In this document: piece after piece, positions 549 to 39,555 of the stretch
Numbering within the stretch: position 1 is the first letter of the stretch
Layout of the letters: each line of letters opens with the position of its first letter
NCBI GenBank assembly: GCA_035554435.1
Contig: DATMJC010000040.1
Location: forward strand, 42,222 to 106,221
Direction of reading: 5' to 3'
DNA: 64,000 nucleotides
DNA from: Burkholderiales bacterium
GTDB taxonomy: Bacteria; Pseudomonadota; Gammaproteobacteria; Burkholderiales; SG8-39
Made by a program: the position numbers and the translations under genes
Notes under the pieces: model-generated
The model's database searches: none
Told to the model about the DNA's origin: nothing
Seen by the model: only the letters and a program-made list of their open reading frames with translations

Positions 549-890
549 CTAATTCCTATGGATCGAGCGGCAGCGGGCGATGTCCTCGTCGGTCATCACC
601 GACTTGAACTGGCACTGGGCCTCGTAGGCGGCGCGGGCGCGCAGCACATCGCGCTCTTCTTTTTCCTTGGCGAGCTGCTTCTGGCGCTCCGCCTGCTCTT
701 GCTCGTACGCCTTGAGGACCGCCGCGCGCTTTGCCTCTTCTTCGGCCGCGCGCGCAAGCTTTTCCTCGGCTTCCTTCATCCGCGCCTGTGTCGCGGCGTC
801 GGGCGCCACCGACTTGGGCTGAGCGATAGCCGCGGTTGCGAACGCCAGGCCGAGGAGCATTGCGGCGGCGAGTTGTTTTTGTTTCAGCAT
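549..890 (-). CDS. small secreted protein, Lys/Glu/Ala-rich predicted coiled coil, two C-terminal Cys; family unknown
   Basis: N-terminus MLKQKQLAAAMLLGLAFATAAIAQP looks like a Sec signal peptide with an AIA cleavage site. The rest is charged heptad-like sequence. No family recognised. Confidence 0.45.
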   Translation of the reverse strand: MLKQKQLAAAMLLGLAFATAAIAQPKSVAPDAATQARMKEAEEKLARAAEEEAKRAAVLKAYEQEQAERQKQLAKEKEERDVLRARAAYEAQCQFKSVMTDEDIARCRSIHRN

Positions 891-2412: not shown

Positions 2413-3438
2413 TCAAGCGCTGAGCTTGGGTATCACCTCGCTCACGAAGAGCTCGAGAGAGCGCATCGCGTGCTCGGGAGCGAGGTCGCCGAAGGAGAAG
2501 ACGCACAGCAGGTAGTTGGCGCTCGTGACGCGCAACATGTCCTGCACCTTGTCGAGCACCGTGCGCGGCGAGCCGACGACCAGCGGCTGGGTGGAGTCGG
2601 GGGCGAAGGGCTCGGTCTTGTGCACATCGGGCCGGCCATGCCTGCGCGTGAGGTGGTGGATGTGACTCGCCCAGGTGGCATAGGCCTCGAGCCCCAGGCG
2701 CTCGGCTTCGGCGTCGGTCTCCGCGATTACCATGTGCTGGGTCTTCGCGAGGAACGGCTCGGCGACGTGCGCGTTGTGCCGGTCCGGATCGTCGCGGTGC
2801 TTTGCCCAAAGCTCGCGATAGCGGTCGAAGTGCGGCTTGCAGTCGGCGAGCTTGCCGAGGAACGCGGTGTGGTAGCCGTGGCGCGCCGTGAAATCGATCG
2901 ACTCGCGGTTCGAGCTCGGGAACCAGAGCGGCGGCCAGGGCTTCTGCACCGGCTTGTTGTAGAGCTCGACGTCTTGTCCGCGATAGTTGGCAAGATCTTG
3001 GGTGCAAAAGCGGAAAAACCAATCGAGTGCTTCCCGGTATTTCTCGCGCGACTCGTCGATGCTCTGCAGCCCGAAGATCTTCGATTCGATCGGCGAGACG
3101 CCGCGGCCGACGCCGAGCTCGAGGCGGCCGCCGGACATCTGGTCGAGCATGCAGATCTCGTTGTAGAGACGGTAGGGGTCGTACCACGGCAGGCAGAAGG
3201 TGAGGCCGCCCGCGCGCAGCTGCCGCGTGCGCTGGAACATCGCCGACAGCATGACGCTCGGCGAGCCGTCGATCGAGAGGGGCGTGCCCTGGTGCTCGGC
3301 GACCAGATAGGCGTGGAAGCCCGCGTTGTCGGCCGCCGCCGCGAGCTCGAGCTTGTGCCGATAGACCTCGCCCGGGCTGCGCCGCGAAGCCTCGATCCAG
3401 TCGAACAGGCCGAAGCGCAGCTTTTCGTTCAATTCCAC
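2413..3438 (-). CDS. LLM-class (luciferase-like) flavin-dependent monooxygenase/oxidoreductase
   Basis: This is the C-terminal 342 aa of the composite 2413..4515 ORF: (V)ELNEKLRFGLFDWIE...FHAYLVAEHQGTPLS...GGRLELGVGRG. The GTG start at 3438 overlaps the upstream stop (3429-3431) by 10 nt. Confidence 0.8.
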   Translation of the reverse strand: MELNEKLRFGLFDWIEASRRSPGEVYRHKLELAAAADNAGFHAYLVAEHQGTPLSIDGSPSVMLSAMFQRTRQLRAGGLTFCLPWYDPYRLYNEICMLDQMSGGRLELGVGRGVSPIESKIFGLQSIDESREKYREALDWFFRFCTQDLANYRGQDVELYNKPVQKPWPPLWFPSSNRESIDFTARHGYHTAFLGKLADCKPHFDRYRELWAKHRDDPDRHNAHVAEPFLAKTQHMVIAETDAEAERLGLEAYATWASHIHHLTRRHGRPDVHKTEPFAPDSTQPLVVGSPRTVLDKVQDMLRVTSANYLLCVFSFGDLAPEHAMRSLELFVSEVIPKLSA

Positions 3439-4574
3439 ACCTTGCGCGCGAGCTCGACCACGCGCTCGAGCTTCCTCTTCTGGTCGGCTTCGCTGACCAG
3501 GTTGCCGGCGACGTCGGAGCCGAACCCGCACTGCGGGCTGACGGCGAGGCTTTCGATCGGAATGTACTTCGTCGCCTCGTCGATTCTTCGCAGCAATTGA
3601 TCCAAAGGCTCCAGCGCGGGCACCTTGGTGCTGACGAGCCCCAGCACCACGATCTTGCCCTTGGGCACGAACCGGAGCGGCGCGAAGCTGCCGGCGCGCG
3701 GGCTGTCGTACTCGAGGAGGAAGCGCTGGTGCGGCAGCTCGTTGAACAGGCGCTCGGCGATGGCGTCGTAGCTGCCCTCGCGGTGCCACATGCTGCGCTG
3801 GTTGCCGCGGCAAAGATGGATGCCGAAGGTGACGCCAGGAAATCCCTCGACCACGCGCGCGTTGGCCCGAAGGGAGCGCGAGAAGCTCTGCTGCGGATCT
3901 TCGCCGCGCTTGCGCATTGCCTCGAGCGAAGGCTCGTCCACATAGGCGGTGTAGCCGGGCTCGTCGATGTGGACGTAGCGGCAACCCGCTTCGGCGAGCT
4001 GCCGGATCATGTGTCTTTGAATCGCCACCACATCTTCGGCGAAATCGTCCACGCTCGGGTATACCGCCCTCGAGTTGGCATGGTCGAAGCGCTGCAGCAC
4101 GCGGTCCGGTCCGATCAGCGAGACCTTGAGCGGCTTTTTCGCCAGCGGCAGGGCGCGCTCGAATTCTTCCAGCGGAACGTTTCTCTCGAGCTTCAGCCGG
4201 CGCGACACCGGGCGCCGGTGTACCACCGGCGTGCCCGCGCCGGCGACGTCGGGCATGTCGAAGCGCGCGAGCGGCGTGCCCGCGGCCGCGCGGCCCTCGT
4301 GCTGGGCGAGGCCCTCGGCTCCGCTCTCGTAGCCGGAGACGGCGAGACCGAAGCTGTCCTGGAAATTGAGCCGCCCGACCTCGCCGTCGGTCACGACGTC
4401 GAGACCGATGCTTTCCTGCAGCGCAAGATTCTCGCGCATGCACTCGAGCTCGATCCGCGCGAAATCCGTTCCCGACAGCGAGCCTTGCTCCATTCTGGCG
4501 CGGGCGGCTTTCCACGCCTGCGGCCGCAGCAGGCTGCCGACCACGTCGGTGCGGATGCGATCGAGCTCAGTCAT
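3429..4574 (-). CDS. cobalamin-independent methionine synthase II (MetE C-terminal / UROD-like) family protein
   Basis: MTELDRIRTDVVGSLLRP N-terminus. Zn-ligand-like motifs IHLCRGN and VSPQCGFG. The start at 4574 overlaps the upstream stop by 8 nt. Confidence 0.8.
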   Translation of the reverse strand: MTELDRIRTDVVGSLLRPQAWKAARARMEQGSLSGTDFARIELECMRENLALQESIGLDVVTDGEVGRLNFQDSFGLAVSGYESGAEGLAQHEGRAAAGTPLARFDMPDVAGAGTPVVHRRPVSRRLKLERNVPLEEFERALPLAKKPLKVSLIGPDRVLQRFDHANSRAVYPSVDDFAEDVVAIQRHMIRQLAEAGCRYVHIDEPGYTAYVDEPSLEAMRKRGEDPQQSFSRSLRANARVVEGFPGVTFGIHLCRGNQRSMWHREGSYDAIAERLFNELPHQRFLLEYDSPRAGSFAPLRFVPKGKIVVLGLVSTKVPALEPLDQLLRRIDEATKYIPIESLAVSPQCGFGSDVAGNLVSEADQKRKLERVVELARKVWN

Positions 4575-5496
4575 GCTTGACGCCGGCGCTTTTCGCCGCG
4601 GCACTGTAGCGCTCCAGATCCTCTTTCACGAAGCGCACATAGTCCTCGGTGCCGTTCTCCCTCAGCTCCATCGCCAGGTTTGCCATGCGCTCGGCGACGT
4701 CGCGCTCGCGCAGCGCCTTCGCCACCGCCGTCTGCAGCCGCGCCACTACTTCGCGCGGCGTTCCGGCCGGCGCTTGCAGTCCGATGACGGTCGCGATGTC
4801 GAAGCCGGGATATCCGAGCTCGGCGGCGGTGGGCACGTCGGGGAGCGTGCTGGAGCGCTGGGCAGTGCTGATCGCGTAAACCTTGAGCTTGCCCGCGCGA
4901 ATGTGGGCGAGCACGTTCGGAATCCCGGACCAGCCCGACTGCACCTCGCCCGAAAGGACGGCTGCGACGAGCGCAGTGCCGCCCTTATAAGGGACATGGA
5001 GCATGTCCAGGCCGGCGCGCGAAGCGAATACCGCCATGGTGAGGTGGTGCACCGAGCCGTTTCCTGCCGAGCCATAGCTGAATTTCCCAGGCTGACCCTT
5101 CGCGAGGAAAACGAAGTCCTGCAGGGAAGCGGCGGGCACGGAGGGGTTCGCAACCAGAACTGTCGGCACCGCGGCAAGCGCGGTGATCAGCGTGAAGTCC
5201 TTGAGCGGGTGATAAGGAACCTTGGGATTCAAGGCGACGTTGATCGCCATGGCGCCGGAGTCGCCCAGCATCAGCACGTAGCCGTCCGGCGCGGAGCGGG
5301 CGACGGCCTCCGCGGCGACCACGCCGCCGGCGCCGGGGACGTTTTCCACCACGAACGGGCGTCCGAAGCTCTCCGCGAGCTTCGCCGCCAGCATGCGCGC
5401 GAGCACGTCGGGATTGCCGCCCGGCGCCGCCGCGGCGATGAGGCGCACGGATTTGGCGGGGTAATCCTGCGCGCTCGCCGCCTGCGCAAGAAGCAA
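4567..5496 (-). CDS. Bug family tripartite tricarboxylate transporter substrate-binding protein (TctC-like)
   Basis: YPAKSVRLI..PGG..D..AR, GSAGNGSVHHL and VPYKGG motifs typical of Bug/TctC. The true start is probably upstream at 5523 (see finding), because the TTG at 5496 leaves no signal peptide. Confidence 0.85.
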   Translation of the reverse strand: MLLAQAASAQDYPAKSVRLIAAAAPGGNPDVLARMLAAKLAESFGRPFVVENVPGAGGVVAAEAVARSAPDGYVLMLGDSGAMAINVALNPKVPYHPLKDFTLITALAAVPTVLVANPSVPAASLQDFVFLAKGQPGKFSYGSAGNGSVHHLTMAVFASRAGLDMLHVPYKGGTALVAAVLSGEVQSGWSGIPNVLAHIRAGKLKVYAISTAQRSSTLPDVPTAAELGYPGFDIATVIGLQAPAGTPREVVARLQTAVAKALRERDVAERMANLAMELRENGTEDYVRFVKEDLERYSAAAKSAGVKHD

Positions 5497-5532
5497 AAGG
5501 ACGAAAGCGATGAGCTTGATGATCTTGGCCTC

Positions 5533-6249
5533 CTACACGCCCAGGTACCGATGCCAGAGGCCGCGGTCGGCGTCAAGCTCGGCCGAGGCTCCGTGCCAGG
5601 CGACGCGGCCGCGCTCGATGATGGTGTGGCGGTCGGCGAGCTTCACCAGGCGCTCGATGTACTTGTCGATGACGAGGATGGTCTGGCCCTCGCCGCGCAG
5701 CCGCTCGAGGCAGCGCCAGATCTCCTCGCGCACCAGCGGCGCCAGCCCTTCGGTCGCCTCGTCCAGGATCAGGAGGTGGGGATTGGTCACCAGCGCGCGG
5801 CCGATGGCGAGCATCTGCTGCTCGCCGCCGGAGAGCTGGTTTCCCATGTTGTCCTGCCTTTCATTCAGCCTGGGGAAGAGCTCCAGCACCCGCGCGGGGG
5901 TCCAGGGAGCGGGGCGGCCGCTGCGGTTCGCCGCGAAGGCGGCCAGGTTCTCGCGCACCGACAGGTTGGGAAAGATCTGACGGCCTTCCGGCACCAGCGC
6001 GATTCCCATGCGCGCGATGCGGTCCGGCGCGGCGCGCTCGATGCGCTCGCCGCGGAAGGAGATCGATCCAGCGCGCGTGCGGGTGAGGCCCATGATCGAG
6101 CGGATCGCGGTGGTCTTGCCCATGCCGTTGCGCCCGAGCAGCGACACCGCCTCGCCTTGGTTTACGCGCAGAGAGAATCCGAACAGGACCTGGCTCGCGC
6201 CGTACGCAGTCTCGAGCTCGCGCACCTCAAGCAGCAAGCTCGTCTCCAA
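5533..6249 (-). CDS. branched-chain-amino-acid-type (HAAT family) ABC transporter ATP-binding protein, LivF-like
   Basis: Walker A GRNGMGKTT, signature LSGGEQQML, Walker B LLILDEAT. Confidence 0.9.
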   Translation of the reverse strand: METSLLLEVRELETAYGASQVLFGFSLRVNQGEAVSLLGRNGMGKTTAIRSIMGLTRTRAGSISFRGERIERAAPDRIARMGIALVPEGRQIFPNLSVRENLAAFAANRSGRPAPWTPARVLELFPRLNERQDNMGNQLSGGEQQMLAIGRALVTNPHLLILDEATEGLAPLVREEIWRCLERLRGEGQTILVIDKYIERLVKLADRHTIIERGRVAWHGASAELDADRGLWHRYLGV

Positions 6250-6970
6250 GATAGGCGCGGCGCACGTCCTTGTCGGCGCGGATCTCGGCCGGTCTGCCGC
6301 TTGCGATGACCCGGCCGTTCACCAGCACGGTGATCCGGTCGGCGAGGCGGAAGACCGCGTCCATGTCGTGCTCGACCAGCAGCACCGTCACGCCGCCGCG
6401 GAGCCGGCCGATGAGCGCGATCATGCGCTGCGATTCCTCCGGGCCCATCCCGGCCATTGGCTCGTCAAGCAGCACGAGCCGCGGCTGCGTGGCGAGCGCA
6501 AGTCCGACTTCCAGCGCACGCTGTTCGCCGTGGGCCAAGGTGGAGGCGAGCGCTTCGACCTTCTCCGCAAGGCCGACGCGAGCGGCAAGGCCGCGGGCCT
6601 CGTCGAACAGCGCGCGTTCCGCGGCGACTGGACGCCAGAACGAGAAGCTCGAGCCGCGGCGCGCCTGCACCGCGAGCGCCAGGTTGTCGAGTACGCTGAA
6701 GCGCCTGAAGATGCTGGTGATCTGGTGGCTGCGGGCGAGACCCAGCCTCACCCGCTCGTACGGTTTCGCCTTCGTGATATCGCGTCCCTGGAAGCTGATC
6801 TGGCCTTCGTCGCTCGATACGCTGCCCGAAATCTGGCTGACCAGCGTGGTCTTGCCGGCGCCGTTGGGTCCGATCATCGCATGCACCTCGCCCGGCGCAA
6901 CGTCGAGGTTGACTCGATCCACCGCCACCACGCCACCGAAGCGCTTACTGAGGTTTCTTAGCGAAAGCAC
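6227..6970 (-). CDS. HAAT family ABC transporter ATP-binding protein, LivG-like
   Basis: Start trimmed to GTG giving (M)LSLRNLSKRFGGVVAV. Walker A GPNGAGKTT; LLDEPMAGM. It overlaps the permease stop upstream and the LivF-like start downstream. Confidence 0.9.
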   Translation of the reverse strand: MLSLRNLSKRFGGVVAVDRVNLDVAPGEVHAMIGPNGAGKTTLVSQISGSVSSDEGQISFQGRDITKAKPYERVRLGLARSHQITSIFRRFSVLDNLALAVQARRGSSFSFWRPVAAERALFDEARGLAARVGLAEKVEALASTLAHGEQRALEVGLALATQPRLVLLDEPMAGMGPEESQRMIALIGRLRGGVTVLLVEHDMDAVFRLADRITVLVNGRVIASGRPAEIRADKDVRRAYLGDELAA

Positions 6971-7883
6971 CGGCAATTCCTCGGGGCGCGAAAAGCACCA
7001 CCGCGAGCAGGATGGCGCCGACCGGCAGCTGCCAGTGCAAGGCAAAGGGGCCGAGCAGGGGACTTCCTGAGAACAACTCCTCCAGCAAGAGCAACACCGC
7101 GGCCCCGACCGGGCCGCCCCAGAAGCGGCCGACGCCGCCGAGGATCACCATCACCATCAGCGTGCCCGACTGCACCCAGTGGAGCAGCGCCGGACCGACG
7201 TAGCTGGTCTGGTTGGCGATCAGCGCGCCCGCCAGCCCGGCGATGGCGCCGGAAATGACGAAGCACACGAGCTTGTAGCGGTACACGGGGTAGCCTATCG
7301 CGGTGGCGCGTGTCTCGTTCTCGCGGATCGCCTCGATGACGCGTCCGAACCGCGCGTGCACCAGCCGATGCAGCAGATAGAGCACCGCCGCGAGCAGCGC
7401 GAGCACGAGGTAGTACCACACGAAGTCGTTCGACAGGCTGACGCCGAACCCGGGGGTCGAGCGCGCCGCCAGCGGCAGGCCGTCGTCGCCGCCGTAGGCC
7501 TTCATCGATATGAAGATGTAGTACATCATTTGCGCGAACGCCAGGGTGATCATGATGAAGTACACGCCGCGCGTGCGCAGCGATATCGCCCCGATGACGA
7601 GCGCGGCGAGCGCCGCGACCGCGATCGCGGCGGGCCAGACGAGCCACACGCTGGTGACGCCCTCGACCGCGAGGATGCCGACGATGTACGCACCGGCGCC
7701 GAAGAATGCGGCATGGCCGAAGCTCACCATTCCGCCGTAGCCGAGCACCAGGTTCAGGCTCGCCGCGGCCATCGCGTAGATCAGGATGCGGGTGGCGAAG
7801 CTGATGTAGAAGCCCTGGTCGATGGCCTGCATCGCCAGCGGAAACAGGCAGACGAGGACCGCGATGGCGACGAGCTTCTTCAT
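6945..7883 (-). CDS. HAAT family ABC transporter permease, LivM-like
   Basis: Real gene is MKKLVAIAVLVCLFPLAMQ... (313 aa) within the composite 6945..8333 ORF. ATGA overlap with the upstream permease at 7880-7883. Confidence 0.85.
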   Translation of the reverse strand: MKKLVAIAVLVCLFPLAMQAIDQGFYISFATRILIYAMAAASLNLVLGYGGMVSFGHAAFFGAGAYIVGILAVEGVTSVWLVWPAAIAVAALAALVIGAISLRTRGVYFIMITLAFAQMMYYIFISMKAYGGDDGLPLAARSTPGFGVSLSNDFVWYYLVLALLAAVLYLLHRLVHARFGRVIEAIRENETRATAIGYPVYRYKLVCFVISGAIAGLAGALIANQTSYVGPALLHWVQSGTLMVMVILGGVGRFWGGPVGAAVLLLLEELFSGSPLLGPFALHWQLPVGAILLAVVLFAPRGIAGAFAKKPQ

Positions 7884-8746
7884 CCTCGCGCCGGAAACAG
7901 GCCCTGCGGGCGGAAGAACAGCACCGCGGCCATGAGCACGTAGATCAGGATCGAGGAGAGCGATGGCCCGAGGTTGGACGCTGCCTGCGGCGAGAACATC
8001 TTCGCGAATGCGATCGGCAGCAACGCGCGCCCCATGGTGTCGACCGCGCCGACCAGAAGCGCGCCGACGAACGCACCGCGGATCGAGCCGATGCCGCCGA
8101 TGACGATGACGACGAAGGCGAGGATCAGGATGTTCTCGCCCATGCCGACCTGCACCGCGAGGATCGGCCCGAGCATGGCGCCGGCAAGCGCGCACAGGGC
8201 CGCGCCCAGGGCGAACACCGCAGTGAAAAGACTGCGGATGTTCACTCCCATGGCGAGCGCCATCTCGCGGTTCGAGGCGCCGGCGCGCACCAGCATTCCG
8301 ATCTTCGTCTTGGTGACCAGGACGTAAAGGCAAATGGCGACGGCGACGCCCACGCCGATGATCGCCAGCCTGTAGGACGCATACTGCACGCCACCCGGAA
8401 GCCGGACCGGGCCGGTCAGCGCGGCGGGCGCATTCAGCATCAGCGACTGCGCGCCCCAGACGATGCGCACCGCCTCATTGGCGATCATGATCACCGCGAA
8501 CGTGGCGAGCACCTGTGTGAGGTGGTCTCGCTCATAGAGGTTTCTCAACAGAACGACTTCCAGGACGGCGCCGACCAGGGCCGTGGCGATGAGCGCGAGC
8601 GGCAGGGCGGCCCAGAACGAGCCGGTGGCCTGCGCAAGCGTCGCCATCAGATACGCGCCGATCATGTAGAGCGAGCCGTGCGCCAGGTTGATCATGTCCA
8701 TGATGCCGAACACGAGCGTCAATCCGGCAGCGAGCAGGAACAGCAT
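7880..8746 (-). CDS. HAAT family ABC transporter permease, LivH-like (N-terminus probably extends to 8800)
   Basis: GLTLVFGIMDMINLAHGSLYMIGAY is the conserved LivH block. The family-typical N-terminal helix (FFEQGLNSLQFG) lies upstream of the ATG, with only CTG codons available. Confidence 0.85.
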   Translation of the reverse strand: MLFLLAAGLTLVFGIMDMINLAHGSLYMIGAYLMATLAQATGSFWAALPLALIATALVGAVLEVVLLRNLYERDHLTQVLATFAVIMIANEAVRIVWGAQSLMLNAPAALTGPVRLPGGVQYASYRLAIIGVGVAVAICLYVLVTKTKIGMLVRAGASNREMALAMGVNIRSLFTAVFALGAALCALAGAMLGPILAVQVGMGENILILAFVVIVIGGIGSIRGAFVGALLVGAVDTMGRALLPIAFAKMFSPQAASNLGPSLSSILIYVLMAAVLFFRPQGLFPARG

Positions 8747-8813
8747 CAGCCCGAACTGCAGGCTGTTCAGTCCCTGCTCGAAAAATAGGGTCGGGGTCAG
8801 AGCCCGATCCCCG

Positions 8814-9980
8814 TCACTTCATGTCGCAGTCTTTGGCCCAGTAGTCTCCGAGGCCGGTGACCGCCGTGCCGACCTTCTTGTTGACCAGGCGGCCCTGCTT
8901 GTCCTTGGCCACCACGCGCACGTAGTAGTCCTGCACCGGGGTGCCGTTGTGCGCCATCTTGATCTCGCCGCGCGGTGACTTGAAGCGCGTCGGCGCGCTC
9001 ATCAGCGCCTGGTGGAAGGCCTTCTCGTCCTCGATCTTGCCTTTCACCGTGCGCACCGCGGCATCGATGAAGAGCGCAGTGGTGTATCCCTGCTCGGCGA
9101 AGAGCGACGGCACGCGCTTGTACTCCTTCTCGAACTCGGCGACGAATTTGCGGTTGGCGTCGTTGTCGAGGTCGTAGGCCCAGTGCGAGGTGTCGAAGAT
9201 GCCGAGCATCGGCTCGCCGACGGCGCGGATGATGTCCTGGTCGTCGGCGAACCCGGGCACCACCAGCGGGATCTCGGCGGAGAGGCCGCCGGCCACGAAC
9301 TGCTTGATGAAGTTGATGCCCATTCCGCCCGGCAGGAACGCGTACAGCGCCGCCGGCTTGGCGGCGCGGATCTGGGCGAGCTCCGCCGAGTAGTCGAGCT
9401 GGTTCAGCTTGGTGTACACCTCGGCCGAGATGGTGCCGCCGTAGCCGCGCTTGAACCCGGTAGTCGCGTCCTTGCCCGCGGGATAGTTGGGCGCGATCAG
9501 GTACACGTTCTGGAAGCCCTTCGACTTGGCATACAGCCCGGCTGCCTCGTGGTGCCCCTCGTTCGGCCAGGCGGCGGACACGAAGTGCGGATTGCAGCCT
9601 TTGCCGGTGATGCTGGTCGGCGTCGAGTTCGGCGCGATATAGAACACCTTGCCCTCCTGGATCGTCGGCCACGCCGCCAGCATCACGTTGGAGAAGATGA
9701 CGCCGGTCATCAGGTTGACGCGGTCGCGCTTCAGCAAACGCTCGGCGAGCTGCTTGCCGGTCTCGGGGTTGAGCGTGTCGTCGGCGAAGACCACCTCGGT
9801 CGGCAGCCCGCCGAGCTTGCCGCCCGCCAGCTTCAGCGCGAGGTTGAAGCCGTCGCGGACTTCGACGCCGATCGCGCCGGCGGGGCCGGACAGCGTCGAC
9901 AGGTAGCCGATCTTCAGCTCGTTGGCGGCATGCGCATCGAACGCAAATAAGAGAATTGCTAAAGAAAGGATTCTTCTCAC
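8814..9980 (-). CDS. ABC transporter substrate-binding protein, LivK/Leu-Ile-Val-binding (type I periplasmic binding) family
   Basis: Signal peptide MRRILSLAILLFAFDAHA, then LKIGYLSTLSGPAGAIG. The GTG start overlaps the upstream stop (GTGA at 9977-9980) and is preceded by GAGGAGGAG. Confidence 0.85.
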   Translation of the reverse strand: MRRILSLAILLFAFDAHAANELKIGYLSTLSGPAGAIGVEVRDGFNLALKLAGGKLGGLPTEVVFADDTLNPETGKQLAERLLKRDRVNLMTGVIFSNVMLAAWPTIQEGKVFYIAPNSTPTSITGKGCNPHFVSAAWPNEGHHEAAGLYAKSKGFQNVYLIAPNYPAGKDATTGFKRGYGGTISAEVYTKLNQLDYSAELAQIRAAKPAALYAFLPGGMGINFIKQFVAGGLSAEIPLVVPGFADDQDIIRAVGEPMLGIFDTSHWAYDLDNDANRKFVAEFEKEYKRVPSLFAEQGYTTALFIDAAVRTVKGKIEDEKAFHQALMSAPTRFKSPRGEIKMAHNGTPVQDYYVRVVAKDKQGRLVNKKVGTAVTGLGDYWAKDCDMK

Positions 9981-10927
9981 GGGTCGCTCCTCCTCGATCT
10001 CATTCTACCAATCCAGCGGATCTGGCGTTGATAGGGCGGGGAAGGCTCGGCCATCGCGGCGAGGCGCGCCTCCTTCTCGCGCGTGCTCTCGGGAATCGAG
10101 TCGAGCGCGTCCTTCAGCATCGGCTCGTAGTCCGCGCCCACCGGGCAGACGTCGGCGCAGCGCCGGCAGCCGGTGATCACGCCCGCGCCGCGCAGGATGC
10201 TCTGCCAGAGGTTAAAGCTGTCCTCCGAGCGCAGCATCGCTTTCTTCTGCTTCGCGTCGGGCTCGTCGATCACGCGTCCGAGGTAGTCGGTGAGCTGCGC
10301 GAAGCCGTGCGGCGAGCGGTAGGTGTCGCACGCCTCCCAGTCGCGGTCCCACTGCCGGATCACATCGCCCGGGCAGGCCTTCAGGCAGCGGCCGCATTCC
10401 GGTCCGAGGCAGAGCGCCTCGCTCATCGGCCGGTCGCACTCGACGTCCACCGAGCAGAGCACCGCGGTGAGGATGACGCGCGGTCCGAATTCCCTCGTCA
10501 AGAGTTGCAGATTGAGCCCGAGCGTGCCGAGGCCCGCCTCCACCGCCGCGTGCGGCAGCGAAATCAGCGTGCTTTGGTGCCTCGCGGGGTCACCCTGATA
10601 GCGCCAAGGGTCGACGTGCGTCGGCGGCACGATGATCGCCGGATAGCCCGCGTCCTCCAGCCAGTACACCAGCTCGAGCGACACCTCCTCGAGGAAGGTG
10701 AGCGAGAGCTCATCGTTGTAGTACTTGTTGCGATCGTTCCACCTGGGTATGCGGGAGCTCCCTGCCTGCACGCGCGTCGCCATGACGATCACCCGGCCGC
10801 CGTCGTGCTCGGTGATATGGCTCGTGTCCACGTTCTTGCCGTCGGCGATACCGACCAAGTCCGCGCCAAGCTCACGCGCTTTTTCCTTTATCTGAAGAGA
10901 AGTCAAAGGACGCTTGAAGACGTTCAC
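9977..10927 (-). CDS. QueG/RdhA-superfamily 4Fe-4S protein (epoxyqueuosine-reductase-like), paralog B
   Basis: This is the last 316 aa of the composite 9977..12097 ORF, with a GTG start overlapping the paralog A stop (GTGA, 10924-10927). Motifs: ARELGADLVGIA, EAGLGTLGLN, LTREFGPR, CLGPECGRCLKACP, GCRRCADVCPVG. Confidence 0.75.
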   Translation of the reverse strand: MNVFKRPLTSLQIKEKARELGADLVGIADGKNVDTSHITEHDGGRVIVMATRVQAGSSRIPRWNDRNKYYNDELSLTFLEEVSLELVYWLEDAGYPAIIVPPTHVDPWRYQGDPARHQSTLISLPHAAVEAGLGTLGLNLQLLTREFGPRVILTAVLCSVDVECDRPMSEALCLGPECGRCLKACPGDVIRQWDRDWEACDTYRSPHGFAQLTDYLGRVIDEPDAKQKKAMLRSEDSFNLWQSILRGAGVITGCRRCADVCPVGADYEPMLKDALDSIPESTREKEARLAAMAEPSPPYQRQIRWIGRMRSRRSDP

Positions 10928-11970
10928 TGTTTCTCTTTCTCCTTCTGCAGCCGCTTGAACTCCTGCAGCTGGCGCGCCACGATCCCCTGGTAGCCCTTCT
11001 CTCCGACCCAGCGGATGTTCCATTCGGACAGGCCCGGAAGCTCGTGCCCTTCCTTGCGCGCCTTCTTGAACTCCGCGGCCCTGGCGACTTTCTCCGGCGT
11101 CTTCTCGGGAATGTGCTTCTGGATGTCGGCGAGGTGCGCGTGGTAGTCGTTGCCGACCGGGCACACCGCGAGGCAGCGCGGGCAGTCGCCGAAGGAGCCG
11201 ACCACGCGCAGCAGGCCCTGCCAGAAACCGAAGAGATCGCGCGAACGAATTGCCTTTTTCTGCTCTTCGCTGGACATATCGATGAACCGGCTCATGAAGT
11301 TGGTGATCGTCATGTAGCCGAACTCCTGCGCTTCGGTAGCGCAGCCCGGCTTGTCGAGTCCCCACTGCTTGACCGCATCGGGCGGGCAGGAGTGGAGGCA
11401 CCGGCTGCACGACTCGCCTATGCACACCTGCTCCTCCATGCGCCGGTCCGCCTCGAGCTCGAGCTCGGTAAGAATCCCGGTAAGGTAGAGGCGCGGGCCG
11501 AACTCGGGGGTGAGGATGTTCACCTCCAGCCCGAGCGTGCCGAGGCCCGCCTCGACGCCGAGGTGTCGGGTCGAGAGCTGCCCGTAGCTCGCACGCTTCA
11601 GGTTCCAGTCGGTTTCCTGCGCCGCGAGCGTGAACGAGGGATGACCGGCGCGCTCGAGCTCCTGAGCGAGCTTGAGGGCGATGCGGTCCATGCGCCGCAG
11701 CACCAGCATGTCGAGGTACTGGACCGGAACGTTGGTCTTGCAGCGGAACGCGCCCACCGGGATGCGCTGGACGATGACCACCACGCTCTTGATGTACGGC
11801 GAGATGCGCTCCGGCGTCTGCGGCCAGCGTGGATCGGGCGGAAAGGCGTTGAGCGTCGCGGCCGAGGCGATGCCGCAAAGGTCGGCGCCCAATTCCTTTG
11901 CGCGGCGCTTGACTTCGTTTGAAGTGACCGGAGAAGCCAGCACCGTCCCGCGTCGAAGGGTCCGTGACAT
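10924..11970 (-). CDS. QueG/RdhA-superfamily 4Fe-4S protein (epoxyqueuosine-reductase-like), paralog A
   Basis: AKELGADLCGIA, EAGLGTLGLE, LTPEFGPR, CIGESCSRCLHSCP and DCPRCLAVCPVG. These align by eye to the QueG core (ERAGIGF...TPEYGS...C..C..C...CP...C..C...CP). Confidence 0.75.
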   Translation of the reverse strand: MSRTLRRGTVLASPVTSNEVKRRAKELGADLCGIASAATLNAFPPDPRWPQTPERISPYIKSVVVIVQRIPVGAFRCKTNVPVQYLDMLVLRRMDRIALKLAQELERAGHPSFTLAAQETDWNLKRASYGQLSTRHLGVEAGLGTLGLEVNILTPEFGPRLYLTGILTELELEADRRMEEQVCIGESCSRCLHSCPPDAVKQWGLDKPGCATEAQEFGYMTITNFMSRFIDMSSEEQKKAIRSRDLFGFWQGLLRVVGSFGDCPRCLAVCPVGNDYHAHLADIQKHIPEKTPEKVARAAEFKKARKEGHELPGLSEWNIRWVGEKGYQGIVARQLQEFKRLQKEKEKQ

Positions 11971-11973
11971 ACG

Positions 11974-11987
11974 CTACCGTATGGTAG
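11974..11987. promoter_or_regulatory. candidate TetR operator: inverted repeat CTACC-GTAT-GGTAG in the 26-bp divergent gap
   Basis: A perfect 5+5 inverted repeat with a 4-nt spacer is read directly at 11974-11987. It is the only symmetric element between the start codons at 11970 (-) and 11997 (+). Confidence 0.35.
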
Positions 11988-11996
11988 TCTTTCCCG

Positions 11997-12533
11997 GTGC
12001 GATCGCAATGGCTCGGCGCCGGGCTGGACGCGCTGCGCAAGGGCGGCGTCGGCGCGGTGCGCGTCGAGCGCCTCGCCGCCGACGTAGGCGTCACCAAGGG
12101 CAGCTTCTATCACCACTTCCGCGACCGCGGCGCGCTGCTCGAAGCGCTGCTGGAATTCTGGTCGCGCGAGATGACCGACGCCGAGTTCGAGCGCATCCAG
12201 AGCTTGCGCGGCGGCGACACAGGAGGGGAACTGCGCGCGCGCCTGCTGGCACTCGCCGAGGACGTTCTGGAGAAGGGCATGGGCCGCTACGATCCGGCGA
12301 TCCGCGCCTGGGGGCGCAGCGACCGCAAGGTGGCGGCTGCGGTCGCGCAGGTCGACCGCCGGCGCGTGCGCGCGCTGACGGCGCTGTTCGAGGAAGGCGG
12401 ATTCGGCGCTGCCCAGGCGCGCACCCGCGCACGGACCTTCTATACGTTCCTGCTCGGCGAGCCGCAGGTGCGCGCACCGGTGCGCGAGGCCGGAGAACTC
12501 GCGCGGATGGTCGAGATTCTGGCTCGGCCCTGA
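11997..12533 (+). CDS. TetR/AcrR family transcriptional regulator
   Basis: HTH region VRVERLAADVGVTKGSFYHHFRDRGALLEALLE is the classic TetR N-terminal signature. Confidence 0.85.
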   Translation: MRSQWLGAGLDALRKGGVGAVRVERLAADVGVTKGSFYHHFRDRGALLEALLEFWSREMTDAEFERIQSLRGGDTGGELRARLLALAEDVLEKGMGRYDPAIRAWGRSDRKVAAAVAQVDRRRVRALTALFEEGGFGAAQARTRARTFYTFLLGEPQVRAPVREAGELARMVEILARP

Positions 12534-13835
12534 ATGCCCCTGAGACTCCCCAAGTCGCGCGCCGAGATCCGCCGCCTCCAGAGCGAACGCAAGCGTGCTG
12601 CGGTGGAGCGGGCGACGCGTTCGCCGTTCTGGAAGAAACGGCTTCCCAGCGTAAACCTTGAAAAGCTGGACGACCCGGAGGTGTGGCGGAAGATTCCCAT
12701 CCTCGACAAGGACACGCTGCGCGGGCTGTCGGATGCGCAGTTCTACGGCGAGTTCTGCCACGCGGAGCACGACGGCATCGCCGAGTACTGGCGCTCGGGC
12801 GGCGTCACCGGCCAGCCGCTCTTCTACCCGCGCAGCTTCCGAGACATCGAGGTTGGCCTCGAGTCCTTCGCGCGCACCTTCGACTGCGCCGGGGCCGGCC
12901 GCGGCGAGCGTGCCCACATCTCCTTCCCGCTGGGCATCCACCCGGTCGGCCAGATCTACTTGCGCTGCGCCACTTCGCGCGGCATCACGGTCAACTGGGC
13001 GGGCGCCGGCACGTCGACCCCCTCGCCCCTGCAACTGGAGCTGATCCGGCGCCTGAAGCCGACCATCTGGCTCGGCATGTCGAGCTACGCGCTGCATCTC
13101 GCGAATCTCGCGGAGGCACGCGGCGTTGAGCTGAATTCAATAAAGAAGATCATGACCTCCGCCGAGCCGGTGTCGCAGGCAAAACGAGACAAGATCGAGC
13201 GCAGCTTCGGTGCCAAGCTCACCGACAACTTCGGCATGACCGAGGCCGGCATGATGGGCAGCGAGTGGAAGGAAGATGAGTCCGGGCTTGGTTTCCGCAT
13301 CTGGACCGACCTCTACCTTATCGAGGTGCTGGATCCCAAGTCGCTGGACCCGGTGAAGGAGGGCGGGGTCGGTACCTTGGTGGTCACGGCGCTGCAGACG
13401 AACAACGTTACGCCTTTCCTGCGCTGGAGCTCGGGCGACCTCGTCACCTACGGCGAGGCGGATGATGAAAGGGATGGAAAAAAGGCAGGCCCGTTCTCCG
13501 TGTTCCCGCGCATCAAGCACGCGCACCGCACCGCGGGCTTCTTCAAGGTGCGCGGCGTCAACCTCGGCCACCAGGACCTCGAGGACTTCATGTTCCGCCA
13601 CGTCGAGATCGGCGACTTTCGCGCCGAGGTGCTGAACGAGGGCGGCAACGACATCCTGCGGCTTTCGATCGAGATCCGTCGCGGCGCGGACCGGGAATCC
13701 TTTGCCAACGCCCTTTCCGGGAAGATCAAGGCCGCGTTCGAGCTCGCGCCTCAGGTGGTGGTGCTGGAAACCGGAACGCTCGCCAGGGAATTCGAGGCCA
13801 ACGTCAAGGCGGTGCGGTTCGTAGACCGCCGTTAA
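12534..13835 (+). CDS. phenylacetate-CoA ligase (PaaK)-like / coenzyme F390 synthetase family adenylate-forming enzyme
   Basis: IPILDKDTLR, WRSGGVTGQPLFYP (equivalent to SSGTTGKP), MSSYALHLA, MTSAEPVS, NFGMTEAG, FKVRGVNL. The start abuts the TetR stop (TGA ATG). Confidence 0.75.
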   Translation: MPLRLPKSRAEIRRLQSERKRAAVERATRSPFWKKRLPSVNLEKLDDPEVWRKIPILDKDTLRGLSDAQFYGEFCHAEHDGIAEYWRSGGVTGQPLFYPRSFRDIEVGLESFARTFDCAGAGRGERAHISFPLGIHPVGQIYLRCATSRGITVNWAGAGTSTPSPLQLELIRRLKPTIWLGMSSYALHLANLAEARGVELNSIKKIMTSAEPVSQAKRDKIERSFGAKLTDNFGMTEAGMMGSEWKEDESGLGFRIWTDLYLIEVLDPKSLDPVKEGGVGTLVVTALQTNNVTPFLRWSSGDLVTYGEADDERDGKKAGPFSVFPRIKHAHRTAGFFKVRGVNLGHQDLEDFMFRHVEIGDFRAEVLNEGGNDILRLSIEIRRGADRESFANALSGKIKAAFELAPQVVVLETGTLAREFEANVKAVRFVDRR

Positions 13836-14731
13836 ACCGAGTCGAAGTACTCCACCATCTTCCTCCGCGTGCCGGCGTCCGGGAGGGCGCCGAGCCCGGC
13901 GGCCATGTTGTCGCGGATGTGCTCCGGCCTGGTGGTCGCGGGAATGGCGCAGGTGAGCGCCGGGTGCGACACGATCCACTTGAGGAAGTACTGCGCCCAG
14001 CTCGCGATGCCGAGCTCCGCGGCCCAGGCAGGCAGGGGCTTGCCCTTGACGTGGCTGAAGAGCGCGCCTTCCTGGAACGGCCGGTTCGCGATCACCGCCA
14101 CCTTGAGGTCGCGCGCGAGCGGCAGCAGCCTGTTCTCGGCATCGCGTTCGCCGAGCGAGTAGTTGATCTGGAGGAAGTCGTACGCCTTGGTCTTCAACAG
14201 GCGCTCGATCTCGCCGTAGGCCGAGGCGGTGTAGTGGGTGATCCCGATGTAGCGGACGCGCTCGGCTTCCTTCATGTCCTTGAGGGTGCGCGTGTGCGTT
14301 TCGACGTCGGCCAGGTTGTGGATCTGCATGAGGTCCATGCGCTCGACTCGCATGCGGCGAAGGGACTCCTCGATTTGCCGCACCCCCTGGTCCCGGCCGT
14401 GGGTCCAGACCTTGGTCGCCATGAAGAGCTTGTCGCGCAGGTGGAGCTCCGCGGTGAGGTCGCCGACCACGGATTCGGCTGCGCCGTACATGGGCGAAGA
14501 ATCGACTACGCGGCCGCCCGCCGCGGAGAACGCCTTGAGCACCTCGCGCAACGGCGCGAGCGCGGCGCGATCGCCGCGCACGTCGAAGGTCTGCCAGGTG
14601 CCGATGCCGATGGCCGGAAGCTCCTCCCCCGAGGAGGGGATGCGCTTCAGCACGATGCGCGACTGTGCCCGGGCCGGCCTCACCGCTGCCGCTGCAAGCG
14701 CGGCGATGAGCGCGCGTCGTCGCCGGTCCAT
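13832..14731 (-). CDS. aldo/keto reductase with an N-terminal twin-arginine-like signal peptide
   Basis: MDRRRRALIAALAAAAVRPARAQS followed by an AKR core (IGIGTWQT, DSSPMYG, ATKVW, IGITHY, RPFQEG). Confidence 0.8.
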   Translation of the reverse strand: MDRRRRALIAALAAAAVRPARAQSRIVLKRIPSSGEELPAIGIGTWQTFDVRGDRAALAPLREVLKAFSAAGGRVVDSSPMYGAAESVVGDLTAELHLRDKLFMATKVWTHGRDQGVRQIEESLRRMRVERMDLMQIHNLADVETHTRTLKDMKEAERVRYIGITHYTASAYGEIERLLKTKAYDFLQINYSLGERDAENRLLPLARDLKVAVIANRPFQEGALFSHVKGKPLPAWAAELGIASWAQYFLKWIVSHPALTCAIPATTRPEHIRDNMAAGLGALPDAGTRRKMVEYFDSV

Positions 14732-22583: not shown

Positions 22584-23935
22584 GCGCCGAGCTCGGGCCG
22601 GCCGTGATCGCCTTCGTCGTCTTGGCGTGCCTGCTCGCGGGTTTCGGCCACGGCGCGCTTGGCTTCGGCTTCCCGATCGTCGCCACGCCGCTCGTGGCGC
22701 TCGCGATCGACATCAGGTCCGCGATCGCGCTGCTCGCGCCGATCACGCTCGTGCTCACGGTGATCTCGGCGCTGCGCGGCGTCGCCCTCTCGTCGATAGT
22801 GCGCGAATTCTGGTTCCTGCCGCTCGCTACGGCGCTCGGGGCCTGGCTCGGCACGCGCATCCTCCTTGCGATGCCCCCGGAGCCCTTTCTCCTCATACTG
22901 GCGGGGGTGATCCTTCTTTACCTCAATCTCGACCGCGTCGGCCGCGGCCGCAGCGCGCTGGTCCAGCGGCTGCGCGTGCCGTTCGGCGCAGCGTTCGGCT
23001 TTGTCGCCGGCGTGTGCGAGGCGGTAGCCAACGTCGCCGGCCCGATCCTGCTGATCTACTTCATGCTGCTCGGCCTCGCGCCGGCGCAGGTCGTGCAGAC
23101 GCTGAACCTGTGCTTCTCGCTCGGCAAGGGCGCCCAGACCGCCACCTGGGCGATGTCGGGCGAGATCAGCGTGGGTGGCTGGCTCCTGATCGGCGCGCTC
23201 ACCGTGCCTTCGGTGGCGGCGCTTTTCGCCGGCATGCGTGTGCGCAGCCGCATCGACGCACCGACGTACCGGCGCTGGCTCCGCGGCGCGCTATGGATCA
23301 TGGCGGTTCTCCTGCTCGTCCAGTTTTCGACCCGCGTGTCGGCGTCCGAGGAAGCCCTGTGGCGCGCGATCGAGCAGGACGACGAAGCCGCCGCGCTCGC
23401 GCTGGTGCGCGCCGGAAACCTCGACGTCAAGGCGCGCAACGCGGCGGGCGACACGCCGCTGCACCGCGCGGCGGAAAAGGGGATGCGCTCCCTCGCCGAG
23501 TCGCTGCTCGCGCGTGGCGCCGAGGTCAACGCGCGCTCCAAGAACGGCGAGACCCCGCTTCACTTCGCCGCGCTGGACGCAGACGTGTCGGTCGCCGAGC
23601 TGCTGCTCGACGCCGGCGCCGACCCGGGCGCGCAGAACAACGACGGCGAGTCGGTCCTGATGTGGGCGGCCCTGAGCGGCCATGTCGCGGTGGCGCAGCG
23701 CCTGCTCGCGCGCGGCGCCGACGCCAACGCCCGGGACCGCAAGGGCAGCCTGCCGCTGCACGCGGCGGCCGACGGCGGCCATCTCGAGCTCGCTCGCATG
23801 CTGTTGCCCCGCACCAAGGAGCCGCAGGCGAAAAACGGAGCTGGCAGGAGCGCGCTCGATTACGCGCGCGCCAACGGCTATGCCCAGATCGAGAAGCTGC
23901 TAGAAGGCCCGACCAGCCTAGAAGGCCCCAATTAG
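22580..23935 (+). CDS. TSUP (TauE/SafE) family membrane transporter fused to C-terminal ankyrin repeats
   Basis: ATGA overlap with the upstream stop. About 250 aa of polytopic membrane domain (GFGHGALGFGFPIVATPL...). This is followed by at least 4 ankyrin repeats (GDTPLHRAAEKG, GETPLHFAAL, GESVLMWAALSGH, GSLPLHAAADGGH). Confidence 0.75.
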   Translation: MSAELGPAVIAFVVLACLLAGFGHGALGFGFPIVATPLVALAIDIRSAIALLAPITLVLTVISALRGVALSSIVREFWFLPLATALGAWLGTRILLAMPPEPFLLILAGVILLYLNLDRVGRGRSALVQRLRVPFGAAFGFVAGVCEAVANVAGPILLIYFMLLGLAPAQVVQTLNLCFSLGKGAQTATWAMSGEISVGGWLLIGALTVPSVAALFAGMRVRSRIDAPTYRRWLRGALWIMAVLLLVQFSTRVSASEEALWRAIEQDDEAAALALVRAGNLDVKARNAAGDTPLHRAAEKGMRSLAESLLARGAEVNARSKNGETPLHFAALDADVSVAELLLDAGADPGAQNNDGESVLMWAALSGHVAVAQRLLARGADANARDRKGSLPLHAAADGGHLELARMLLPRTKEPQAKNGAGRSALDYARANGYAQIEKLLEGPTSLEGPN

Positions 23936-24904
23936 CCGCTCGTACGACCGGGTGCGCGAGGCGTAGTCGCCGGTAATGGTGAGGACCATCATCTCATCGG
24001 CGCCGTAGCGTCCAGCCATCGCCTCGAGCTCCTCGCGCACCCGCCGCGGGCCCCCGATGACTGCCCGGGCCCGCTGCCCGGCGACATATTCGCGCTCCGC
24101 AACGGTGTACTGGTGGGCTGCGGCCTCCTCGGCAGTGGGCACGGGCGAGTCGATATTGAGCGCCATGTGCAGCCGCCGCAGGTCGATGGGCCGCGCCAGC
24201 CGCTCGGCGTCTTCATCGTCCTCGCCGCAGATGGCGAACGCGCAGACCATGGTTCGGGGCGAGGGCTCGTGACCAGGGCGGAAATGCTCGCGATAGGCCT
24301 GCATCACTTCCTCGCCGCCGCGCGGGTTGATGAAATGAGCGAACGCGAACGCCATGCCGAGCTGCGCGGCGAGTGCGCCGCTGTAGTCCGAGGAGCCGAG
24401 GAGCCAGATCTCCGGCGCCGTCGGGACTTCGGGCTGGAGGCGCACGCGCTTGTAGGGATGGTCGGGGGGCAGCCTGCCGGCGAGGTGGGCGGCGAGCTCC
24501 CATACCTGCTGCGGAAACTGCTCGGCGTCCGGAAACCCGCCGCCGGCGACTGCCTGCGCGGTCCTGGCGTCGCCGCCGGGGGCGCGCCCGACACCAAGGT
24601 CGATGCGCCCGGGATAGAGCGCCTCGAGCATGCGAAATGCCTCCGCGGTCCGGAAGGCGGCGTAGTAGGGCAGCAGGATCCCGCCGGTCCCTATGCGCAG
24701 CCGGGAGGTCTCTGCGCCCAGGCGTGCCACGAGCACCTCGGGGCAGGGGTCTGCGAGTGCGGCGATCGCATGGTGCTCGGCCAGCCAGTAGCGGTGGTAG
24801 CCCAGCGCCTCGGCGCGGCGGGCGAGCGCCAGCGTCTCCAGGATCGCGCGGCGCGCGTCATGGCCGGCGATGACGGGCGACTGATCGAGGATCGAAAGCT
24901 TCAT
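23918..24904 (-). CDS. LLM-class flavin-dependent oxidoreductase (luciferase family, YhbW/MsnO8-like)
   Basis: MKLSILDQSP...GYHRYWLAEHH...GTGGILLPYY...IDLGVGRAPG. Confidence 0.8.
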   Translation of the reverse strand: MKLSILDQSPVIAGHDARRAILETLALARRAEALGYHRYWLAEHHAIAALADPCPEVLVARLGAETSRLRIGTGGILLPYYAAFRTAEAFRMLEALYPGRIDLGVGRAPGGDARTAQAVAGGGFPDAEQFPQQVWELAAHLAGRLPPDHPYKRVRLQPEVPTAPEIWLLGSSDYSGALAAQLGMAFAFAHFINPRGGEEVMQAYREHFRPGHEPSPRTMVCAFAICGEDDEDAERLARPIDLRRLHMALNIDSPVPTAEEAAAHQYTVAEREYVAGQRARAVIGGPRRVREELEAMAGRYGADEMMVLTITGDYASRTRSYERLIGAF

Positions 24905-39466: not shown

Positions 39467-39555
39467 TTTGCGGGATTTGCCGGGGTGCCGCCAGCCCGTT
39501 TCGGCCGGCTCGGCATAGCGCTTGCTCGCGGACCGGACTAACCAAGGAGGCGCGA

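Follow-up and report, generated by a model that had tools for sequence, protein, structure and literature searches.

A 64,000-nucleotide stretch of a Burkholderiales bacterium genome (contig DATMJC010000040.1 of assembly GCA_035554435.1; hereafter the window) carries a minus-strand operon of ten genes. It begins with two paralogous iron-sulfur (Fe-S) proteins, here called FeS1 (10924-11970) and FeS2 (9977-10927), and faces plus-strand genes for a TetR-family regulator and a PaaK-like adenylate-forming acid-coenzyme A (CoA) ligase. Across relatives of this region FeS1, FeS2 and the ligase form a conserved core, and the modelled fold of FeS1 is that of epoxyqueuosine reductase QueG and the reductive dehalogenases (RdhA). 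The reading that we prefer, at a confidence somewhat short of even, is that of an inducible module in which a substituted aromatic acid would be taken up, activated with CoA and reductively converted as its aryl-CoA ester by an FeS1/FeS2 heterodimer.

Conservation of the Fe-S pair and the ligase

Relatives of the module were found in 223 stretches in a scan of species-representative genomes, and 80 loci were kept for comparison. All 80 were from metagenome-assembled genomes or assemblies of uncultured isolates, labelled mostly as Burkholderiales/Betaproteobacteria or as Alphaproteobacteria (Xanthobacteraceae, Stellaceae, Rhodospirillaceae, Acetobacteraceae and others). The window proteins were mapped onto these loci, whose open reading frames were all clustered, and the cluster representatives were scanned with profiles. 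Linkage was counted in those 45 loci in which FeS1 is flanked on each side by 6 kb or more of sequence, and presence was scored within 6 kb of that gene. FeS2 was present in 45/45 and the PaaK-like ligase in 44/45 of these loci, and LivK, the binding protein of the Liv-type transporter, in 22/45. The genes at the distal end of the operon were rare, with the MetE-like protein and the luciferase-like flavin oxidoreductase (LLM) each found in 3/45 loci and the TctC binding protein in 1/45. FeS1, FeS2 and the ligase were colinear in most alphaproteobacterial loci, and the full gene order of the window recurred only in loci L001 and L002 (85-96% protein identity). Based on these counts and gene orders, the operon therefore consists of a conserved core, a transporter and a lineage-specific tail, to which TctC, MetE-like and LLM belong as add-ons. 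An earlier note, made from the window sequence alone, had treated the ten genes as one unit; this is borne out by the recurring order in L001 and L002 but not by the other relatives, in which conservation extends to FeS1, FeS2 and the ligase, partly to the Liv transporter, and not to the remaining genes.

Other Burkholderiales relatives carried a second PaaK-like gene after LivF, in some cases together with TctC, and had no MetE-like gene. This second paralog (~50% identity to the window ligase) was located 3' of LivF in L005, L007, L010, L026, L048 and L060, a position occupied in the window by TctC and the MetE-like gene. Genes for xanthine dehydrogenase and adenosine deaminase upstream of the module in about ten alphaproteobacterial loci were considered as possible partners and set aside as lineage-specific synteny, because they lie outside the operon and are absent from the other loci.

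The Fe-S pair was conserved well beyond these close relatives. FeS1 is ~75% identical between Alpha- and Betaproteobacteria; a large protein collection held 2,396 homologs, the best 120 of which were all metagenomic and 78-96% identical, and 92 cluster representatives matched with E <1e-30 (1.84 billion searched). In a different lineage (L085), counterparts of FeS1, FeS2 and the PaaK-like ligase occurred together at 48, 39 and 38% identity, respectively, in a cluster that also holds two Rieske oxygenases, a LigB-type extradiol dioxygenase and a meta-cleavage-type hydrolase. An assignment of the L085 cluster to the carbazole (car) type was rejected, since NCBIfam profiles gave only weak Rieske matches, an HsaD/BphD-like hydrolase and a generic class III extradiol dioxygenase. 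In L089 the pair (39 and 40% identity) was accompanied by a divergent Liv transporter, and the ligase gene that follows encodes a classical AMP-binding acyl-CoA synthetase rather than a PaaK-like enzyme. Two further proteins, P0303 and P0304, are natural FeS1-FeS2 fusions in a single chain, with halves of 50-56% (FeS1-like) and 45-50% (FeS2-like) identity, an arrangement that speaks for joint action of the two proteins in a complex. A distant lineage (L093, 8001-14066) had three tandem Fe-S paralogs of 338, 334 and 317 aa with no ligase; next come a TetR gene, genes for unknown proteins and one for a small ferredoxin. No cultured carrier of the module was found in the genome, protein and plasmid searches; megablast and protein searches of the cluster against plasmids returned only generic ABC-transporter similarity and true QueG/RdhA proteins at 25-31% identity.

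Fold and active site of the Fe-S pair

FeS1 and FeS2 share 37% identity, and both gave Fer4 domains and partial QueG and RdhA matches in profile scans. A sequence search of the PDB with the pair likewise returned only QueG and PceA-type dehalogenases as partial matches. An AlphaFold (AF2) model of FeS1 from a diverse alignment had a pLDDT of 92.5 and a pTM of 0.90, and in a Foldseek search with this model 46/46 PDB matches at E <=1e-3 were QueG or RdhA; the next matches listed, near E 2.5e-3, were to the B12 chaperone CblC. In good agreement, hhalign gave FeS1 a probability of 99.6% for homology to Bacillus QueG (FeS1 residues 14-279) and of 99.4% to Sulfurospirillum RdhA. Based on the model, FeS1 is a member of the QueG/RdhA/CblC superfamily, with a nitroreductase-like corrinoid-binding fold and a two-[4Fe-4S] domain. 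The QueG/RdhA likeness proposed in the earlier note thus stands at the level of the fold; it fails at the level of the families, since both proteins score below both cut-offs and lack the catalytic residues. Against the QueG profile TIGR00276 (cut-off 200 bits) FeS1 scored 51.0 and FeS2 39.9, with only residues ~128-210 aligned, and against the RdhA profile TIGR02486 (cut-off 160 bits) the scores were 26.7 and 35.9, respectively. No HEAT/tRNA domain was detected, as the C-terminal part of FeS1 had neither a Pfam/NCBIfam match nor an alignment to QueG. The N-termini of the pair (MSRTLRRGTVLASPVTSNEVK and MNVFKRPLTSLQIK) contain no hydrophobic region of a signal peptide and no Tat signal, the operon holds no small membrane-protein gene that could encode RdhB, and no NAD(P)H reductase domain is fused to FeS1 or FeS2.

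Residue conservation was assessed in 73 FeS1 and 59 FeS2 sequences. The eight cluster cysteines were present in 73/73 FeS1 orthologs and were essentially invariant in FeS2 too. K125, Y129, R135, Y162 and Q215 were each found in 73/73 FeS1 sequences and were variable in FeS2, in which the position of R135 was occupied by proline in 47/59. In QueG, Asp134 is the acid catalyst with His106 as its partner, Arg141 lies under the corrin, and a HEAT domain forms the C-terminus (PMC5175355). In FeS1, Asp134 is replaced by Ser128 (Leu, Gln or Met in FeS2) and His106 by Met88 or Asp87; Arg141 is retained as Arg135, and QueG has a tyrosine at the position of Y162. The active-site residues of PceA, which we take to be Tyr246, Asn272 and Arg305 and which were mapped on 4uqu and on Sulfurospirillum sequences, correspond to Leu91, Ala117 and Tyr162 of FeS1, in an alignment that is less certain upstream of residue 137. 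FeS1 is probably the catalytic subunit and would have its own active site, and the modelled fold together with Arg135 suggests that it probably binds a corrinoid in the base-off state. FeS2 is probably its partner; judging from its conservation pattern, it would be a degenerate paralog that has retained its clusters and perhaps serves in electron entry.

Public records of identical proteins exist for FeS1 (HWI98773.1) and FeS2 (HWI98772.1), both named "hypothetical protein" by PGAP, as well as for the ligase (HWI98775.1, "AMP-binding protein") and the MetE-like protein (HWI98765.1). Many homologs of the pair are labelled "epoxyqueuosine reductase QueG" by JGI.

Probable CoA activation, aromatic neighbors and probable uptake

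The window ligase (12534-13835, +) contains AMP-binding and AMP-binding_C_2 domains, and the adenylation motifs and C-terminal lysine are visible in its sequence. Its similarity to PaaK structures is full-length (4r1l, E 6.5e-29 over residues 8-418); it missed the PaaK equivalog cut-offs by a wide margin (TIGR02155, 120 vs 646 bits; NF041878, 140 vs 700), and no paa genes were among the window gene products scanned. By sequence it is a member of the PaaK-like adenylate-forming subfamily and not a PaaK equivalog. Because some PaaK-like enzymes use no CoA, its use of CoA was read from the neighboring genes. The strongest single argument comes from L089, where a non-orthologous ligase takes the place of the PaaK-like enzyme, which argues that the pair needs the CoA (or adenylate) derivative of an acid.

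The neighborhoods of the relatives are in keeping with this argument. Genes for 4HBT thioesterases directly followed the ligase in 9 loci, and a second type was found in 9 more; a benzoate-CoA ligase family member of 546 aa (347 bits vs a cut-off of 375) was encoded near the module in 18 loci. PaaF-like enoyl-CoA hydratases and an OYE-type flavoprotein were further recurrent partners. The proposal of the earlier note that the substrate is a carboxylic acid activated to a CoA thioester thus gained support from thioesterases, enoyl-CoA hydratases, acyl-CoA dehydrogenases and a second CoA ligase in relatives, as well as from the ligase exchange in L089. Enzymes of oxygenase-based aromatic degradation also recurred near the module, namely a PRK07538 FAD monooxygenase related to 3-hydroxybenzoate 6-monooxygenase, a gentisate 1,2-dioxygenase-like cupin, and BenA/AntA-like Rieske alpha and beta subunits, and a protein in L085 resembles the N-terminal half of salicylyl-CoA 5-hydroxylase (468 bits). 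A role of the pair in the reduction of epoxy-CoA intermediates in the box or paa pathways was considered and rejected, as no box or paa genes were found nearby and the acid catalyst of QueG is missing.

Uptake is most readily assigned to the Liv-type genes, as a binding protein, two permeases and two ATPases are encoded together, the composition of a HAAT (Liv-type) ABC importer. The LivK-like protein (8814-9980, -; Peripla_BP_6, E 9e-71) is closest in the PDB to 4evq, 4ey3, 4evs and 4f06, which we take to be binders of benzoate derivatives from R. palustris. The ligands of RPA0668 include benzoate, 4-hydroxybenzoate and salicylate (PMC3223731). The TctC/Bug-type protein (4567-5496, -; TctC profile, E 5e-73) has BugE (2dvz) and terephthalate-binding proteins as its closest relatives, and no TctA/TctB membrane subunits are encoded in window positions 1-18 kb. 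TctC is therefore an orphan Bug-type binding protein and no evidence of a second complete uptake system, so that the claim of two binding-protein systems in the operon was not upheld. Taken together, the CoA-enzyme and oxygenase neighbors and the relatives of the binding proteins point to a benzoate-type acid that would be handled as its CoA ester and fed into oxygenase routes.

Proposed function and alternatives

In the mechanism that we favor, the Liv-type ABC importer would take up a substituted benzoate-type acid, which the PaaK-like ligase would convert to its CoA thioester. The aryl-CoA would then be acted on in the cytoplasm by a heterodimer of FeS1 as catalytic and FeS2 as auxiliary subunit, each predicted to hold two [4Fe-4S] clusters in a QueG/RdhA-type fold, and FeS1 probably with a base-off corrinoid. 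The chemistry would be reductive, most likely the removal or conversion of a ring substituent, for which halide, hydroxyl, amino and methyl groups are all candidates. The thioester would lower the electron density of the ring, in the manner of other CoA-dependent reactions of aromatic compounds, and the product would pass to oxygenase-based ring cleavage. TetR would repress the operon through a palindrome at the FeS1 start. A more specific version, to which we give a smaller though still appreciable chance, holds that FeS1/FeS2 represents a third functional branch of the QueG/RdhA superfamily, a cytoplasmic heterodimer with its own active site (K125, Y129, R135, Y162 and Q215) that would remove a halide, hydroxyl, amino or methyl substituent from an aryl-CoA by Co(I) chemistry.

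Several observations weigh against this mechanism. The conserved core encodes no electron donor; an Rfam scan of the window found no cobalamin riboswitch, and none of the products examined with Pfam or NCBIfam profiles belongs to a cobalamin gene. In FeS1 the catalytic residues of QueG as well as those of PceA are replaced, and the chemistry is therefore not transferable from either enzyme. Corrinoid binding is read from the fold of a model. The marine fused form (P0304) has no adjacent ligase and adjoins only an enoyl-CoA hydratase. Finally, the oxygenase-rich neighborhoods fit poorly with an oxygen-sensitive, low-potential enzyme.

The alternative that survives best, which we nevertheless consider unlikely, is that of a corrinoid-free Fe-S pair, which would be a redox partner, or a flavin-binding relative by way of its nitroreductase-like domain, and would deliver low-potential electrons to acyl-CoA enzymes (e.g. 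acyl-CoA dehydrogenases or OYE-type reductases) or receive them from these. The missing QueG/RdhA catalytic residues and the degenerate appearance of FeS2 at FeS1-specific positions would be explained by such a role. Some distant family members are encoded beside acyl-CoA dehydrogenases, and others beside molybdopterin oxidoreductases, enoyl-CoA hydratases and a thiolase, in both cases with no ligase adjacent. In L040 and L072 the genes for acyl-CoA dehydrogenase, OYE, ligase, FeS1, FeS2, PaaK-like ligase, LivKHMGF and enoyl-CoA hydratase lie on one strand, such that the first two share the operon of the pair. However, the constant partner is the ligase (44/45 loci), whereas acyl-CoA dehydrogenases were found beside the module in 11/80 loci; the Alpha/Beta identity of FeS1 and its invariant polar pocket exceed what an electron shuttle needs, and the corrin-shielding arginine of QueG is kept.

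Less probable again is corrinoid methyl transfer, in which Co(I) of FeS1 would demethylate a methoxylated aromatic acyl-CoA and the MetE-like protein would pass the methyl group to a thiol, e.g. homocysteine. The MetE-like gene (3429-4574, -) encodes a single-domain protein with a Meth_synt_2 match, a PRK06520 score of 242 bits (cut-off 313) and 1ypx as best PDB match (E 3e-48). Its sequence contains His-x-Cys (IHLC), Glu (LEYD) and Cys (PQCG), candidate zinc ligands of the MetE type. MetE-like genes were found beside the Fe-S pair in 7/80 loci and in unrelated architectures: in L067 and L070 the ligase, MetE-like, FeS1 and FeS2 genes lie on one strand, in L022, L063 and L064 the gene is a neighbor, and in L001 and L002, as in the window, it is part of the operon. 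Methylcobalamin serves core methionine synthases in vitro, and corrinoid proteins probably do so in vivo (PMC7857596); these corrinoid donors provide a precedent for such a transfer. A link of the MetE-like protein to these enzymes (MesA-D) was rejected, as that paper mentions neither PRK06520/YxjG nor this family. Methyl transfer is further disfavored by the rarity of the MetE-like gene within 6 kb of FeS1, by the two [4Fe-4S] clusters per subunit, which point to reductive catalysis, and by the lack of known methyltransferases among members of the QueG/RdhA superfamily.

That the pair is an ordinary QueG acting in tRNA modification, or an ordinary respiratory or catabolic reductive dehalogenase, is very improbable: the JGI labels, the fold and the Fe-S motifs agree with it, and the profile scores, the replaced catalytic residues, the lack of a detectable HEAT/tRNA domain, Tat signal, RdhB or fused reductase and the PGAP naming of both proteins all speak against it.

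Operon structure, start codons and regulation

The G+C content of the window is ~66%, and G+C at codon positions 1/2/3 was ~0.65/0.45/0.87 in the proposed frames, a coding pattern that supported 12/12 gene calls in GC3 frame analysis. Family assignment relied on Pfam and NCBIfam profile scans, by which every gene family named in the earlier note was recovered. Downstream of LivK, the minus-strand operon continues with LivH (7880-8746) and LivM (6945-7883), both BPD_transp_2 permeases, the ABC_tran proteins LivG (6227-6970) and LivF (5533-6249), TctC, the MetE-like gene and LLM (2413-3438; Bac_luciferase, E 7e-44). An LLM gene of >60% identity was encoded beside the Fe-S pair only in Burkholderiales/Betaproteobacteria relatives. 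Each junction was inspected in the sequence, and start/stop overlaps were present at 7/9 (GTGA at 10924-27 and 9977-80, ATGA at 7880-83, and overlaps at 6945-70, 6227-49, 4567-74 and 3429-38), in agreement with the tightly coupled, nearly gap-free operon described earlier at these coordinates. The two remaining junctions are gaps of 67 nt after the LivK-like gene and 36 nt before TctC. Both gaps are probably shorter than annotated, since non-canonical codons further upstream seem to serve as the starts of TctC and LivH.

The signal peptide of TctC requires a start upstream of TTG 5496 (region 5496-5535, -), and the only in-frame candidates are ATC 5523 (which would extend the gene to 4567-5523) or ATC 5520, 5-8 nt downstream of GGAGG. 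The ATC was kept in L001 and L002, and the signal peptide in L002 is encoded with no canonical start at all; this looks like a conserved ATC start codon. For LivH, a conserved N-terminus (LFFEQGLNSLQFGL) is encoded in frame upstream of ATG 8746 (8746-8821, -), in a segment devoid of ATG, GTG and TTG, and translation may start at CTG 8800, or at ATC in L001 and L002. A hairpin with a T-run at 8791-8807 (-), immediately 3' of the LivK-like gene, was also kept in L001 and L002 and may act as a partial terminator, by which expression of the binding protein would be raised over that of the membrane components.

The TetR-family gene (11997-12533, +; TetR_N, E 2.6e-10) ends directly at the start of the ligase gene, and the start codons of FeS1 and TetR are 26 bp apart. 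A palindrome, CATACG-N4-CGTATG at 11968-11983, overlaps the FeS1 ATG. Its perfect form, ATACGGTACCGTAT, was present in 9/9 aligned loci with a TetR match and also in L015, where tblastn gave no TetR, and it was missing from the Burkholderiales loci with another upstream region (L001, L003-L005, L007 and L048). From its position and distribution, the palindrome is a good candidate for the TetR operator. A scan for sigma-70 promoters gave no match, terminator-like sites occurred at chance level except for the hairpin 3' of the binding-protein gene, and the Rfam scan of the whole window detected no riboswitch or other RNA.

Flanking genes

Beyond LLM, a 143-aa DUF1697 protein (1981-2412, +) matches only the first 38 of 137 profile positions, and its stop codon abuts that of LLM convergently with zero gap. 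It is followed toward window position 1 by an Amidohydro_2 protein (950-1975, +) and a Rieske oxygenase alpha fragment (1-555, -), both assigned with Pfam/NCBIfam. Between these two genes, positions 549-890 (-) encode a predicted secreted protein of 113 aa that is rich in Ala, Glu and Lys and has no Pfam match. Rieske alpha and beta genes of the BenA/AntA type also recur near the module in relatives. On the other side, an aldo-keto reductase with a Tat-like N-terminus (MDRRRRALIAALAAAAV...; 13832-14731, -) converges on the ligase with a 4-nt stop overlap, and in many Burkholderiales relatives this gene is syntenic with the ligase, often together with genes for an MFS transporter and an isochorismatase-family protein. 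Elsewhere the window carries ordinary chromosomal genes, including those for thymidylate synthase, SHMT, RibD, HrpA and a P450, and a CoxL-type molybdoenzyme cluster. A second LLM gene lies at 23918-24952, and a CoxL/CoxM-type molybdenum hydroxylase with MoxR-type AAA and CoxE VWA genes at 36076-43707, among which a malonyl-CoA decarboxylase gene is found (37266-38681).

Comparison with known systems

To our knowledge, only two chemistries are established in the QueG/RdhA superfamily, reductive dehalogenation and epoxyqueuosine reduction. The earlier note could not name a pathway for this operon, and the literature gave no characterised match either; a search for a QueG-like or RdhA-like protein together with a CoA ligase returned nothing relevant, and no curated family was found. 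QueG (B. subtilis 5d08/5t8y; S. thermophilus 5d6s) was the best structural match to FeS1 (Foldseek E 1.7e-10) and shares with it the arrangement of two [4Fe-4S] clusters, the AGLG...TPE(F/Y)G motif, the arginine under the corrin and the cytoplasmic location. It differs in its acid catalyst pair and in a family score that FeS1 does not approach, and it acts as a single chain, whereas FeS1 and FeS2 would form a heterodimer of paralogs. The region after QueG residue 258, including the HEAT domain (PMC5175355), is unaligned, and the FeS1 alignment ends at residue 279. The Fe-S pair adjoins a CoA ligase and never queuosine genes.

RdhA proteins (PceA 4uqu; RDH complex 8q4h; NpRdhA 4ras/6zxx) have the same fold, with 8q4h first in the profile search (E 9e-14), and the GADLVGIA and AGLG motifs are common to both. 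NpRdhA is, like the Fe-S pair, cytoplasmic and found in aerobic aromatic-acid catabolic surroundings. Apart from the absent export, anchoring and reductase parts and the substituted PceA residues, the difference lies in the substrate, which is a free halophenol or haloalkene for RdhA and would be a CoA ester for the Fe-S pair.

The 4-chlorobenzoate pathway consists of a ligase, 4-chlorobenzoyl-CoA dehalogenase and a thioesterase. It follows the same logic, in that the CoA ester enables removal of a ring substituent and the thioester is then hydrolysed, and in alphaproteobacterial loci a ligase, a crotonase-family protein and a 4HBT thioesterase surround the pair. The dehalogenase of that pathway, however, is a hydrolytic crotonase and not an Fe-S protein, and the window cluster has no crotonase-family gene or thioesterase. 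PaaK (2y27, 2y4n, 4r1l), the PaaK-like NatL2 (6siw), AjiA1 (6wuq) and HCL (6hdw) belong to the same subfamily as the window ligase (E 6e-29 to 8e-15), which is set apart from PaaK by its low equivalog score and its surroundings. Relatives of the aerobic CoA-dependent salicylate and 2-aminobenzoate routes (PRK08255, gentisate 1,2-dioxygenase) lie beside the module in L085 and L075, and benzoate-CoA-ligase-family proteins do so in other loci; this association is limited to few loci, and we know of no published route of this kind with a QueG/RdhA-type protein.

The ligase-linked branch is common in soil metagenomes, yet its members are annotated as "QueG" or "hypothetical", a systematic mis-annotation that is corrected here, and a minimal three-gene unit is now defined for expression studies. 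If it is a third branch, it would provide a new B12-dependent step in aerobic soil aromatic-acid turnover that is widespread in uncultured soil Alpha- and Betaproteobacteria, and any dependence on B12 would bring a demand for cobalamin, together with a new type of reaction, into aromatic-acid carbon cycling in soil. Reductive aryl-CoA conversions were reported decades ago without genes, e.g. the NADPH-dependent dehalogenation of 2,4-dichlorobenzoyl-CoA, and FeS1-FeS2-ligase is a candidate gene set that may account for such activities. From both characterised branches of the superfamily, the module differs in its subunit structure, its active site and its obligatory partner.

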